The position numbers and the translations under genes were made by a program. A stretch of DNA of 64,000 bases from Escherichia coli. Its GTDB lineage: Bacteria > Pseudomonadota > Gammaproteobacteria > Enterobacterales > Enterobacteriaceae. The notes below the pieces were generated by a model, which worked only from the letters and a program-made list of their open reading frames with translations, was not told where the DNA came from and did not search any database. Location: assembly GCF_050320075.1 (NCBI RefSeq), contig NZ_CP190018.1. The stretch is one strand, 5' to 3'. Below, in pieces: positions 30,970 to 49,263 of the stretch (within the stretch, counting starts at the first letter, position 1; every line of letters begins with the position of its first letter).

Positions 30970-32655
30970 GTGAATATAAACGTCGCCGAATTGTTAAATG
31001 GGAATTACATTCTGTTATTATTTGTGGTCCTCGCGCTTGGGCTATGTCTCGGGAAATTACGACTTGGTTCGATCCAACTGGGTAATTCCATTGGCGTTTT
31101 AGTCGTATCGCTGTTATTAGGCCAACAACATTTCAGCATTAACACCGACGCGCTTAATCTTGGCTTTATGCTGTTTATTTTCTGCGTCGGGGTCGAAGCC
31201 GGACCGAACTTTTTTTCCATTTTTTTTCGCGATGGGAAAAATTACCTAATGTTAGCACTGGTGATGGTTGGCAGTGCGCTGGTGATCGCCTTAGGGTTAG
31301 GTAAGCTGTTTGGCTGGGATATTGGCCTGACGGCCGGTATGTTAGCAGGCTCTATGACGTCGACACCGGTTCTGGTCGGTGCTGGCGATACACTGCGTCA
31401 TTCCGGCATGGAAAGCAGGCAGCTCTCACTGGCACTGGATAATCTGAGCCTCGGGTATGCCTTAACCTATTTAATCGGTCTGGTGAGTTTGATTGTTGGT
31501 GCGCGTTACTTGCCGAAATTGCAGCATCAGGACTTACAGACCAGCGCCCAGCAAATCGCCCGCGAACGTGGCCTGGACACAGATGCCAACCGTAAGGTTT
31601 ATTTGCCGGTGATCCGCGCCTACCGCGTCGGCCCGGAGCTGGTAGCCTGGACCGACGGCAAAAATCTGCGTGAACTGGGTATTTATCGACAAACCGGCTG
31701 CTACATTGAACGTATTCGGCGTAACGGGATTCTGGCAAATCCAGACGGTGATGCCGTACTACAAATGGGCGATGAAATAGCGTTGGTAGGCTATCCTGAC
31801 GCCCACGCCCGACTCGATCCCAGTTTCCGTAATGGCAAAGAAGTTTTCGATCGTGACCTTCTCGACATGCGTATCGTCACTGAAGAAGTGGTCGTTAAAA
31901 ACCATAACGCTGTTGGCAAACGCCTGGCACAACTGAAGTTGACCGATCACGGTTGCTTCCTTAACCGCGTCATTCGTAGCCAGATTGAGATGCCGATTGA
32001 TGACAACGTCGTGCTTAACAAAGGTGACGTTTTACAAGTCAGCGGCGATGCCCGCCGGGTAAAAACCATCGCCGATCGCATCGGCTTTATCTCGATTCAC
32101 AGCCAGGTCACTGACTTGCTGGCATTCTGCGCCTTCTTTGTTATTGGGCTGATGATCGGGATGATCACCTTCCAGTTCAGCACATTCAGTTTCGGCATGG
32201 GGAACGCTGCCGGGTTGTTATTCGCCGGAATTATGCTGGGCTTTATGCGTGCTAACCACCCGACCTTCGGTTACATTCCGCAGGGTGCATTAAGCATGGT
32301 GAAGGAGTTCGGCTTGATGGTGTTTATGGCAGGCGTTGGTCTGAGCGCTGGTAGCGGTATTAATAACGGCCTGGGCGCGATTGGCGGTCAGATGTTGATT
32401 GCCGGATTGATTGTCAGTCTGGTGCCAGTGGTTATCTGCTTCTTGTTCGGTGCTTATGTATTGCGAATGAACCGCGCACTGTTGTTCGGCGCAATGATGG
32501 GCGCACGCACCTGCGCGCCGGCAATGGAGATCATCAGTGATACAGCTCGCAGTAATATCCCGGCGCTGGGCTATGCGGGCACTTACGCAATCGCCAACGT
32601 CCTGCTGACGCTGGCAGGGACAATCATCGTCATGGTATGGCCAGGATTAGGATAA
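30970..32655 (+). CDS. ybjL: Putative transporter YbjL (AAE family, two TrkA-C/RCK_C domains)
   Basis: 561-aa ORF starting at GTG 30970; N- and C-terminal membrane halves separated by a soluble regulatory region. Confidence 0.9.
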
Positions 32656-32697
32656 AACTGAAGTTGCCCTGAAAATGAAATTTTTTTGCACAACAGC

Positions 32698-32726
32698 AGA
32701 ACTTTTCCGCAGGGCATCAGTCTTAA
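32698..32726 (+). promoter_or_regulatory. Sigma-E-type promoter of rybB
   Basis: AGAACTT (-35) then 16-bp spacer then TCTTAA (-10), positioned to start transcription at about 32732. Confidence 0.55.
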
Positions 32727-32731
32727 TTAGT

Positions 32732-32810
32732 GCCACTGCTTTTCTTTGATGTCCCCATTTTGTGGAGCCCATCAACCCCGCCATTTTGGTTCAAGGTTGG
32801 TGGGTTTTTT
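32732..32810 (+). ncRNA. rybB: RybB small regulatory RNA (sigma-E-dependent, Hfq-binding)
   Basis: GCCACTGCTTTTCTTTGATGTCCCC... followed by terminator hairpin and TTTTTT; near-exact match to the RybB sequence as I remember it; sits between ybjL and rcdA. Confidence 0.85.
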
Positions 32811-32829
32811 GTTGCCTAAAATTTATCTA

Positions 32830-33366
32830 CTACCCTGCAACCCTCTCAACCATCCTCAAAATCTCCTCGCGCGATAGCGGCTTACGGTCGGTGACAAAAT
32901 GCAGCGTCATCCCCTCAATAAACGCATCAAGCGCGCGGGCGGTTCCGGGTTCAAACCATTGTTCGAGCGTTTGCTGACTGCGCTGCATCCAGTTTTGCAT
33001 TACCGTTTTTAATAGCGGTTTTCGGCTAGCCAGCGCGTAGAGCTGGTACATCAGCTCCATATTATCCGGCGTTGCAACCTGTGAGCTGTAGATCATATCG
33101 GTGATAGCCTGGCATGCGCCCGGAGCATCACTAACATCGCTAAAAAATGCCTGATATTGCCGGGACATGATCTCAGTAAAACTGCTGAACGCCTCCAGCA
33201 ACAACTCATCAATTCCTGAAAAATAGTAGGTCATCGACCCCAACGGTACCCCGGCAAGGGTAGCAATTTTGCGGTGCGTAACAGCATGTATTCCGTAAAG
33301 TTTCACCGCCTCCAGCGTGGCCTGGATAATTTTTTCTCGCCGTTGCGGATCGTTAGCGCGACGCAT
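32830..33366 (-). CDS. rcdA: TetR-family transcriptional regulator RcdA (YbjK)
   Basis: 178 aa from ATG at 33366; N-terminal TetR HTH ([16 protein letters not shown]). Confidence 0.9.
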
Positions 33367-44078: not shown

Positions 44079-44262
44079 TTAATCTTAAGGCAGATCTAAC
44101 AAGGATATTGTTCTTCGATCTGCCTCTGCTACCCTTCCCGATGTCCTACCCTTACGCACAAAATCCCCTGACGCATAAATCGAGAAAAATGAATCGTACT
44201 CGAGGCAACTCTCACTTTTTCACACCAAATTAAAGTTTTGATCGCAATTACTTGAAATAAGC

Positions 44263-44288
44263 GTAATGGTTACTATAGTAAACATTAC
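44263..44288 (+). promoter_or_regulatory. Near-perfect 26-bp palindrome, candidate operator/promoter of the toxin-antitoxin cassette
   Basis: GTAATGgTTACTATAGTAAaCATTAC (perfect 12-bp core TTACTATAGTAA) centred ~28 bp upstream of the toxin ATG; TATAGT could also be a -10 box. Confidence 0.5.
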
Positions 44289-44303
44289 CACAAGGATGGA
44301 TGT

Positions 44304-44690
44304 ATGGGTGTGTATAAGGCAAGACGATTCAGCCAAAGCACGAAAAAACTTGGTATTCACGATAAAGTTCTCATGGCTGCCGCTGAAGAAGTGATGCAGG
44401 GCATATGGGAGGCTGATTTAGGTAGCGGTGTCATCAAAAAACGTTTACCCCTCCAACAAGGAAAGAGTGGTGGAGCCAGAACAATTATCTTTTTTAAATC
44501 AGCAAATCATGTGTTTTTTTATGATGGTTGGTCCAAGAGTGGTCTAAGCAGTAAAGGAACCAAAGAAATCGAAGATGATGAACTGGCGGCCTACAAAAAA
44601 ATGGCAAATGCATTTCTGGCCTTTAGCAATAAGCAAATAGAGGATTTGATCGAAACTGGCTTTTTGATTGAGGTGAAAAATGAGCGATAA
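44304..44690 (+). CDS. Putative type II toxin, RelE/HigB-like (DUF1044-type)
   Basis: 128-aa ORF with AAGGA RBS; motif GKSGGARTIIFF resembles the KGKSGG(Y/V)R(V/I)IY core of RelE/HigB-family toxins; 11-bp overlap with a downstream HTH gene. Confidence 0.6.
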   Translation: MGVYKARRFSQSTKKLGIHDKVLMAAAEEVMQGIWEADLGSGVIKKRLPLQQGKSGGARTIIFFKSANHVFFYDGWSKSGLSSKGTKEIEDDELAAYKKMANAFLAFSNKQIEDLIETGFLIEVKNER

Positions 44691-45009
44691 ATTACAAATG
44701 ATGCTGGAAGATGCAAAGGAACTGAATGCACTGGGCCTGATGTCTGATAGTGAAGTTGATGCCATTGCCGTCATGGTCAAAGCTCGTGAAGTCAGCGCCC
44801 GTATAGCCAAAGTCAAATCAATGACGGGTGAAGAGATCAAAGCCATCCGCACCCGATACGGCATGTCACAATCCGTGCTGGCACATACAATGGGAATGTC
44901 AAAAGAAAGTGTCTCGAAATGGGAACGAAATGAAATAAAACCGAGCGGCCCGGCACTACGTATTTTGAATACATTGGCAATAAAAGGGCCGGAAGTTTTT
45001 GCAAAGTAA
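44680..45009 (+). CDS. Putative antitoxin, XRE-family HTH protein (YiaG/COG2944-like)
   Basis: 109-aa ORF; C-terminal HTH (IRTRYGMSQSVLAHTMGMSKESVSKWERNEIKPSGPALRIL) resembling YiaG-type regulators; GAGGTG RBS inside the toxin 3' end. Confidence 0.6.
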   Translation: MSDKLQMMLEDAKELNALGLMSDSEVDAIAVMVKAREVSARIAKVKSMTGEEIKAIRTRYGMSQSVLAHTMGMSKESVSKWERNEIKPSGPALRILNTLAIKGPEVFAK

Positions 45010-45038
45010 AATGTTTGCAAATGATTTACCACATTCAT

Positions 45039-45064
45039 TAGTACCCCTTGATTAAGGGGTACTA
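45039..45064. terminator. Hairpin between the TA cassette and the dgcI 3' end
   Basis: TAGTACCCCTT-GATT-AAGGGGTACTA perfect 11-bp stem; no T-run. Confidence 0.35.
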
Positions 45065-45078
45065 ACACTATTCTAATT

Positions 45079-46407
45079 CTACTGCCAGCTAATCTGTGCC
45101 CTGCCGTTTTTCTTACTCTTATACAGTCGCTCATCCGCCAGCATTTTCAAGCGTTCAACGGTAGGACATTCATTTGAATGCGCTACACCGATACTGGTGC
45201 TTAAATTAATGCTTCCCACCTGGAAATGAACAATTTCTTTTAGAATCGATAGCAACTCTTCCAGCGTTCCACCCGTATAAATCACCGCAAATTCGTCACC
45301 GCCGAAGCGGTAGACTTTACCTTTATCTACCGGGATCTGTGATTTAAGGATTTTCACCACTTTCATCAACACTTCATCGCCCAGCAAATGACCGAAAGTG
45401 TCGTTGATGTTTTTGAATTTATCGACGTCAAACAGGCACAAATATCCGCCTTTTTCCGGCAGGGCTTTTAAATCTTCGTCAAAGGATTTTCTGCCCATCG
45501 CTTTGGTCAGGTCATCCAGGAACGCCGAGTTATACAGACTGTAGAGTTTTTTGACATCGGCAGCTGAAAAGAAAAGCCCGCCATCCAGTACGCGTTCAAA
45601 ATGGTTATTAATGATGGCTTCTTTCTCCACAATACCACGATTAATCACTCTGCGTACCAGATAGAGGCAACTGACACCCGATATCACTGCCACCAATGCG
45701 GCAAAGAAAATAATCAATGTACAGACCCGCAAATAAACATCTTTTTTATACGCAAATACGTACAATCCGGTCGGCAAATAGGCGAAGTGCTCCATCGCTT
45801 CCGAAACGGTGAAGATGGCGTTTTTAGCATTAAATTCATCACCGGTCACCGGTTTACCGTTCTTAAACAGAGAGAACATCAGGTTCTCGCTATCCATCGC
45901 CAGCGATTTTGACAGTAAAGAAAAACGCTCCAGACCAAGCAAAAATATCAGACTACGATTATGAGTTACCGGATAGAGGTAATAGACGAAGGTTTTACCG
46001 TCAAAAGAGATAAACCCTGTATTTTTGACATGTCGATACTTCACAATCTGCATAATATCTGCACAATAATTTTTCTCGAACTCCTTTACCTGAATACATT
46101 CGTCACTGGAAATCAGATAAGGACCGACATCGTACAAATAAGAGGGTGAAACCGAGTCGGCGTAAGCTGTGCGCAAGCCAACCAACAGCTGTTCCTCCGT
46201 GGGATTTAGCGTGTTGATAAGATCAATTGCCACGCTACGCCGATATTCAGCAATATTTGCCACCGCAAAAGCAGTATCAATAACGGACTGTTTCAGGCCA
46301 TACACCCGTTCCTTTACCATTTGAGTGTAGATCCCGCAGGCAACTGCTGAAATCATGATAAAAATCAGCAGACTGACTGTAAGTACGAACTTATTGATTC
46401 TGGACAT
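45079..46407 (-). CDS. dgcI: Diguanylate cyclase DgcI (YliF), membrane-anchored GGDEF protein
   Basis: 442-aa ORF; N-terminal TM segment, C-terminal GGDEF domain (RFGGDEF). Confidence 0.92.
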
Positions 46408-48479: not shown

Positions 48480-48487
48480 AAAAATGG
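48480..48487. repeat. IS1 target-site duplication, left copy (AAAAATGG)
   Basis: Identical 8 bp occur immediately outside both IS1 ends (48480-48487 and 49256-49263). Confidence 0.8.
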
Positions 48488-48502
48488 GGTAATGACTCCA
48501 AC

Positions 48503-49006
48503 TTATTGATAGTGTTTTATGTTCAGATAATGCCCGATGACTTTGTCATGCAGCTCCACCGATTTTGAGAACGACAGCGACTTCCGTCCCAGCCGTGCCA
48601 GGTGCTGCCTCAGATTCAGGTTATGCCGCTCAATTCGCTGCGTATATCGCTTGCTGATTACGTGCAGCTTTCCCTTCAGGCGGGATTCATACAGCGGCCA
48701 GCCATCCGTCATCCATATCACCACGTCAAAGGGTGACAGCAGGCTCATAAGACGCCCCAGCGTCGCCATAGTGCGTTCACCGAATACGTGCGCAACAACC
48801 GTCTTCCGGAGCCTGTCATACGCGTAAAACAGCCAGCGCTGGCGCGATTTAGCCCCGACGTATCCCCACTGTTCGTCCATTTCCGCGCAGACGATGACGT
48901 CACTGCCCGGCTGTATGCGCGAGGTTACCGACTGCGGCCTGAGTTTTTTAAATGGCGGAAAATCGTGTTGAGGCCAACGCCCATAATGCGGGCAGTTGCC
49001 CGGCAT
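48503..49006 (-). CDS. insB: IS1 InsB (C-terminal catalytic part of InsAB' transposase, made by -1 frameshift)
   Basis: 167-aa ORF overlapping insA in the -1 frame; sequence matches IS1 InsB. Confidence 0.93.
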
Positions 49007-49200
49007 CCAACGCCATTCATGGCCATATCAATGATTTTCTGGTGCGTACCGGGTTGAGAAGCGGTGTAAGTGAACTGCAGTTGCCATGTTTTACGGCAGT
49101 GAGAGCAGAGATAGCGCTGATGTCCGGCGGTGCTTTTGCCGTTACGCACCACCCCGTCAGTAGCTGAACAGGAGGGACAGCTGATAGAAACAGAAGCCAC
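48925..49200 (-). CDS. insA: IS1 InsA (transposition repressor / N-terminal part of InsAB' transposase)
   Basis: 91-aa [45 protein letters not shown]... (zinc finger plus HTH). Confidence 0.95.
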
Positions 49201-49255
49201 TGGAGCACCTCAAAAACACCATCATACACTAAATCAGTAAGTTGGCAGCATCACC

Positions 49256-49263
49256 AAAAATGG
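49256..49263. repeat. IS1 target-site duplication, right copy (AAAAATGG)
   Basis: See left copy. Confidence 0.8.

Follow-up and report, generated by a model that had tools for sequence, protein, structure and literature searches.

The 79-nt segment at positions 32732-32810 on the plus strand is, we are nearly certain, the Escherichia coli gene rybB, encoding an Hfq-dependent small RNA that would be transcribed from a sigma-E promoter, end at an intrinsic terminator, repress omp mRNAs and feed back on sigma-E. The gene lies within a 64-kb stretch of DNA, all of which was analysed and which we call the window. Family membership, boundaries, synteny, the promoter sequence with its phylogenetic footprint and the covariation of the terminator were established by our analysis, and none of the results spoke against this reading. 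An earlier note on this DNA had named the segment RybB, preceded by a sigma-E-type promoter and intact between ybjL and rcdA, and both its observation and its interpretation are correct. The locus is already known and belongs to textbook, ordinary annotation. The value of the call is limited to annotation, since it supplies a non-coding gene missed by tracks based on open reading frames (ORFs); in addition, it anchors the window to the ybjL-rcdA region of E. coli and indicates that an envelope-stress sRNA and its promoter are intact in this strain. It raises no new biological question.

Features of the locus, with the evidence for each in brackets:

30970-32655, plus strand: ybjL, aspartate:alanine antiporter family, 561 aa (Pfam Asp-Al_Ex and TrkA_C; RefSeq annotation of near-identical E. 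coli matches)
32678-32687, plus strand: A-tract/T-tract AAATTTTTTT in the UP-element position, -54 to -45 (read from the sequence; conserved in 116 loci)
32699-32705, plus strand: -35 element GAACTTT, -33 to -27 (exact pattern match; same in K-12; 98-100% conserved per position in 116 loci)
32719-32726, plus strand: -10 element AGTCTTAA, -13 to -6 (conservation in 116 loci)
32732-32810, plus strand: RybB sRNA, 79 nt (RF00110; 77/79 identity to K-12 rybB, b4417)
32732-32747, plus strand: 5' target-recognition (seed) region GCCACUGCUUUUCUUU, containing CACUGCUUUU (identical to K-12)
32766-32806, plus strand: terminator stem-loop of 12 pairs, A35-U75 to C46-G64, with a small inner hairpin (minimum-free-energy fold; same pairs in the Rfam consensus structure)
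32805-32810, plus strand: U-tail UUUUUU (read from the sequence)
32800-32826, no strand assigned: unoccupied attachment-site core GTGGGTTTTTTGTTGCCTAAAATTTAT of P2-like (Felsduovirus) prophages, 27 nt (duplicated around the prophage in strain EC556)
32830-33366, minus strand: rcdA, TetR-family regulator, convergent (ORF ending at 32830; Pfam TetR_N and TetR_C_31; RefSeq annotation of near-identical E. coli matches)

Identity, boundaries and genomic position

The whole 64-kb window was scanned against all 4227 Rfam families at the gathering threshold. The RybB model, RF00110, gave a strong match at 32735-32813 on the plus strand, with 104.8 bits against a gathering score of 40 (E 1.7e-20), and the match is full-length, covering model positions 1-79 of 79; the outcome that would have refuted the earlier note, a lack of any Rfam hit to RybB, was thus not observed. 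No other Rfam family reached its gathering score within the window, and no tRNA gene was found in the same 64 kb. Alignment with the K-12 gene leads to the same identification: positions 32732-32810 are the base-for-base counterpart of the 79-nt rybB (b4417) annotated in E. coli K-12 MG1655, the RNA being identical at 77 of 79 positions and the promoter at every position from -36 to +1. As read from the sequence, the RNA starts with GCCACTGCTTTTC at 32732 and ends with GGGTTTTTT at 32810. The Rfam model is offset with respect to the mature RNA, starting 3 nt inside its 5' end and extending 3 nt beyond the U-tail; therefore, 32732-32810 is a better boundary for the RNA than 32735-32813. The locus is nearly universal in the species, and a 116-nt segment comprising promoter and gene is present in 5418 of 5426 complete E. 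coli genomes at 90% identity or more.

The flanking genes named in the earlier note, ybjL and rcdA, are confirmed by the RefSeq annotation of near-identical E. coli matches, by the K-12 record and by their Pfam domains. The start of rcdA at 33366 was taken from the length of the K-12 gene, 537 nt. The K-12 record annotates rybB between rcdA and ybjL, in the same gene order as the window, and this position between ybjL and rcdA (ybjK) has also been described in the literature (PMC1804206). Both intergenic distances, 76 nt from the ybjL stop to the +1 of rybB and 19 nt from the end of the RNA to the rcdA stop, equal those of K-12. In a megablast comparison with K-12 852-926 kb, the window was collinear with K-12 858,529-918,541 in inverted orientation at 96-98.5% identity, which identifies it as a chromosomal segment of a non-K-12 E. 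coli strain. Locally, it resembles strain CFSAN061763 and its relatives most closely.

Three small ORFs of 43-71 aa overlap rybB, two on the plus strand (32746-32877 and 32762-32977) and one on the minus strand (32647-32784). We treated them as chance ORFs because the RNA gene fully accounts for the region.

Promoter

The sequence upstream of the RNA contains GAACTT at 32699-32704, a 16-nt spacer at 32705-32720 and TCTTAA at 32721-32726, followed by 5 nt to +1; the GAACTT-N16-TCTTAA arrangement of the earlier note was thus found where it had been placed. According to the published sigma-E consensus, the -35 element is GGAACTTTT and the -10 element is GTCAAA (PMC1804206). The -35 region of the window, AGAACTTTT, agrees with this consensus at 8 of 9 positions, and position 32698, directly before GAACTT, is an A where the consensus has a G. 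The -10 region is a poorer match, since GTCTTA shares only 4 of the 6 positions of GTCAAA, among them the invariant GTC. The spacer of 16 nt and the distance of 5 nt between the -10 element and +1 fit the lengths used for sigma-E promoters (approximately 16 nt and 5-6 nt, respectively).

The motif does not stand as statistical evidence in its own right. When the promoter pattern was searched for throughout the 64 kb with at most one mismatch, one match was found where 0.32 were expected, and 27 of 100 shuffled sequences contained at least one; hence, we rejected the motif as stand-alone evidence. It becomes convincing only because of its fixed distance to +1 and its conservation across species.

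For this comparison, contigs from one genome per species were searched for exact copies of the first 20 nt of RybB, so that the loci compared are those in which this 5' end is unchanged. The scan returned at least 120 stretches, and the 116 distinct loci among the stretches listed were stacked, anchored at +1. They represent Escherichia, Salmonella, Citrobacter, Klebsiella, Enterobacter, Serratia, Yersinia, Hafnia, Proteus, Providencia, Xenorhabdus and other genera. Among these 116 loci, G-33, A-32, A-31, C-30, T-29, T-28 and T-27 are each 98-100% conserved. In the -10 element, G-12, T-11, C-10 and A-7 are invariant, and A-13 and A-6 are conserved at 93% and 95%, respectively. Conservation continues towards the start site, with T-1 invariant, T-4 at 99% and A-3 at 93%. 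The spacer between the two elements drifts, its positions carrying 0.07-0.65 bits each. Judged by sequence, a conserved -35/-10 pair held at a fixed distance across a variable spacer is what one would expect to see at a functional promoter of the sigma-E consensus type. As sequence and as conservation, then, with an 8/9 match at -35 and a footprint in 116 loci, the putative sigma-E-type promoter is borne out.

Further upstream, the same loci carry a region rich in A and T. Positions -53 and -52 are A in 74-78% and positions -48 to -45 are T in 79-90% of the 116 loci listed, and mean A+T content is 76% over -62 to -40 versus 49% in the spacer. From the sigma-E promoter model of PMC3326320, we infer that this A/T-tract may act as an UP-element.

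The evidence that rybB promoters depend on RpoE comes from published work on Salmonella and E. coli (PMC1804206, PMC3326320). Fusions of the rybB and micA promoters drop to near background in an rpoE deletion strain (PMC1804206), and rybB is among the active promoters of a library of 60 sigma-E promoters (PMC3326320). Our consensus scan for sigma-70 promoters and terminators, a method that recognises neither sigma-E promoters nor hairpins with loops of more than 8 nt, returned nothing relevant around rybB.

A different origin for the RNA deserves consideration at this point. Most RybB could arise by processing from the 3' end of the ybjL mRNA, as a 3'-UTR-derived sRNA, rather than from a promoter of its own, with the RybB terminator being the first one that ybjL transcripts meet. 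The two genes are on the same strand, only 76 nt apart, and a crude scan, which weak terminators could escape, found no terminator-like site in the stretch from the ybjL stop (32655) to the RybB hairpin. Some transcripts could therefore plausibly come from read-through into rybB as well. However, the near-invariant -35/-10 pair keeps its fixed distance from the mature 5' end in the 116 loci listed while the spacer drifts, as is typical of a working promoter, and the published rybB promoter fusions are strictly dependent on rpoE (PMC1804206). We consider such an origin extremely unlikely. Transcripts of ybjL may also end at the RybB terminator, but this would not displace the dedicated rybB promoter, which we retain as the source of the RNA.

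Seed, fold and terminator

The seed at the 5' end, the terminator hairpin and the U-tail are all present in 32732-32810, as described in the earlier note. The conserved seed has been published as CRCUGCUUUU (PMC6694218), and the CACUGCUUUU of the window matches it. The invariance of the first 20 nt among the 116 loci is not independent evidence for the seed, because these nucleotides were fixed by the search pattern.

Support for the terminator comes from an alignment of 44 distinct RybB sequences, in which 7 of the 12 pairs of the terminator stem have changes on both sides and 95.9% of the cells are paired. When the whole 20-pair structure was considered, the covariation score was higher than in any of 500 shuffles, and a shift of the 3' partner by 1-3 columns reduced pairing from 93.0% to 22-48%. 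The z-score of the predicted fold against shuffled sequences is only -2.17, and the structural support therefore rests on covariation. In the U-tail, T75-T77 are invariant and T78-T79 are conserved at 90% or more in the RybB alignment. The RybB hairpin, with its loop of 17 nt, was missed by a simple terminator scan that allows loops of up to 8 nt.

The minimum-free-energy fold also pairs CCAC at nt 2-5 (32733-32736) with GUGG at nt 31-34 (32762-32765), which would cover part of the seed. We rejected this seed-sequestering 5' helix as a conserved feature: no compensatory changes were observed in it, and the pair A4-U32 is broken in 18 of the 44 sequences. The CCAC/GUGG helix is probably not a conserved structure, and its absence would fit a seed that is single-stranded and accessible.

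Proposed mode of action

Taken together with the literature, the arrangement of these elements suggests the following course of events. Transcription would start at G32732 from a promoter recognised by sigma-E (RpoE), the parts of which would be GAACTTT at 32699-32705, the 16-nt spacer, GTCTTAA at 32720-32726 and the A/T-tract at 32678-32687 in the UP-element position, and it would stop at the intrinsic terminator at 32766-32810. According to the literature, misfolded outer-membrane proteins cause the release of sigma-E from RseA, upon which RybB would accumulate. With Hfq, its single-stranded 5' seed would pair with many omp mRNAs, including those of ompC and ompA; translation of these mRNAs would be repressed and their decay accelerated, and the resulting lower envelope load would act as negative feedback on sigma-E. 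The sRNAs encoded by rybB and micA have been found to accelerate the decay of omp mRNAs (PMC1804206), and OmpA and OmpC are repressed (PMC6694218). The sigma-E dependence, the Hfq binding, the targets and the feedback loop are all taken from the literature. So far as the letters of the DNA can tell, the elements needed for Hfq-dependent omp repression are intact.

The allele of the window

The RNA differs from K-12 RybB at two positions, both outside the seed, C56U and A69G (K-12 to window). U56 sits in the hairpin loop, and G69 turns the stem pair U41-A69 into U-G. One further difference, a C-to-A change at -37 (32695), lies three bases upstream of the -35 element.

These differences raise the question of whether rybB is present in the window but functionally impaired, with U56, G69 and A-37 weakening termination, Hfq binding or promoter strength. 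Besides the two changes in the RNA and the one at -37, this idea could draw on the rarity of the sequence. A 301-nt region around the gene has no 100% match among 5,426 complete E. coli genomes, the best match being 99.7%; A at -37 together with the rest of this segment occurs in none of these genomes; and in the RybB alignment no representative of another species carried G69. However, the predicted folding energies are essentially the same, -25.0 kcal/mol for the window and -25.2 kcal/mol for K-12, a change of 0.2 kcal/mol, and the U-G at 41/69 keeps the pair. The 116-nt promoter-plus-gene segment is found at 99% identity or more in 883 E. coli records, which makes U56/G69 a common minority allele. 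Position -37 is unconserved across species, with C in 51, G in 35, A in 21 and T in 9 of the 116 loci listed, and none of the changes falls in the seed, the U-tail or a core promoter element. We regard the probability that the gene is impaired as negligible. As read from the alignments, the differences from K-12 touch no conserved functional element, and the gene, its promoter and its terminator are complete, so that the earlier note was right to call rybB intact; in addition, no prophage occupies the attachment site at its 3' end. A subtler effect, in which the allele (U-G at 41/69, U56 and A-37) might measurably alter RybB output and shift the set-point of the sigma-E feedback in this lineage, appears very unlikely.

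An empty prophage attachment site at the 3' end of rybB

The 27-nt attachment-site core consists of the last 11 nt of rybB and the next 16 nt. Integration within rybB has been published as hotspot #29 for Felsduovirus, a defence-island hotspot (PMC10121019). When the 301-nt rybB region was used as a query, it was split at approximately 32826 in roughly 1,196 of 5,422 E. coli genomes (about 22%). In strain EC556, a P2-like prophage remnant of 16.5 kb lies between rybB and rcdA, with ogr, tail genes, CI/CII and then the integrase in order, and on either side of it lies a copy of a 27-nt direct repeat, GTGGGTTTTTTGTTGCCT(A/G)AAATTTAT, the two copies differing by one A/G. The sequence proximal to the integrase has relatives in Escherichia phage vB_EcoM-813R9 and in Klebsiella P2-like phages, and the attP side of the P2-like phage reads AAGTGGGTTTTTT. 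Because the phage carries a copy of the attachment core, integration regenerates the 3' end of rybB. In the window, rybB runs straight into the intergenic region before rcdA, as in K-12.

Around rybB, the window differs from K-12 at few positions, and four of these cluster in or beside the attachment core, at 32800 (G vs A), 32814-15 (GC vs AT) and 32823 (T vs C). We considered whether G69 could be the scar of a prophage that had integrated and been excised. A 62-nt query spanning the junction of rybB and prophage was used in a G69 and an A69 version, and BLAST matches with at least 80% coverage were counted. The G69 junction was found in 105 genomes versus 960 for the A69 junction; most lysogens therefore have A69, and an origin of G69 as a scar is unsupported.

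Relation to known systems

The closest known system is K-12 RybB itself (b4417; RF00110), which has the same length of 79 nt, the same 5' end, seed and terminator architecture, the same promoter from -36 to +1, and the same neighbours and intergenic distances. The window differs from it by C56U and A69G in the RNA and by one substitution at -37, together with further ones just downstream of the gene, at 32814-15 and 32823. The other sigma-E-dependent sRNAs of enterobacteria, MicA and MicL, and the Vibrio sRNAs MicV and VrrA follow a common logic, in which transcription from a sigma-E promoter yields an Hfq-dependent sRNA, and this sRNA represses the mRNAs of abundant envelope proteins (PMC1804206, PMC6694218). 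The CRCUGCUUUU seed is common to RybB, MicV and VrrA (PMC6694218). However, MicA, MicL, MicV and VrrA are other genes at other loci and in other Rfam families, and the sequence of the window scores only as RybB.

The genes of sRNAs and tRNAs are known as prophage attachment sites, as with ssrA and tRNA genes, and rybB is likewise one of these, its 3' end overlapping the 27-nt core. Compared with genomes in which the Felsduovirus hotspot #29 is occupied, the site in the window is empty.

Other features of the window

The window contains several features at a distance from rybB. An IS1 element of 768 bp at 48488-49255, the InsA and InsB of which were confirmed by Pfam, interrupts pdeI (yliE), a gene for a c-di-GMP phosphodiesterase, and splits it into ORFs of 127 aa and 685 aa. 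It is flanked by a target duplication of 8 bp at 48480-48487 and 49256-49263.

Two segments are absent from K-12. The first is an insert of approximately 1 kb at 44084-45079, between rimO and dgcI, in which the overlapping plus-strand ORFs 44304-44690 and 44680-45009 encode a RelE-family protein (PF06296, E 7e-33) and an HTH_3 protein. The HTH_3 protein of this pair is probably an antitoxin. The same RelE-family/HTH pair is also annotated in strain EC556. The second is an islet of 2.5 kb at 14000-16547, between ybjQ and ybjP, with 30-37% GC versus about 50-56% in its flanks. Its minus-strand ORF at 14149-15951 encodes a protein of 600 aa that has only sub-threshold matches to pentapeptide repeats. 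The islet is found at 80% coverage or more in 1,122 of 5,426 E. coli genomes and with any match in 1,696 of the 5,426.

Conversely, the window is without approximately 65 bp of the artJ-artM intergenic region of K-12 (at approximately 20177) and approximately 150 bp of its rlmC-artJ intergenic region (21133-21150). The missing K-12 segments may be REP-type intergenic repeats.
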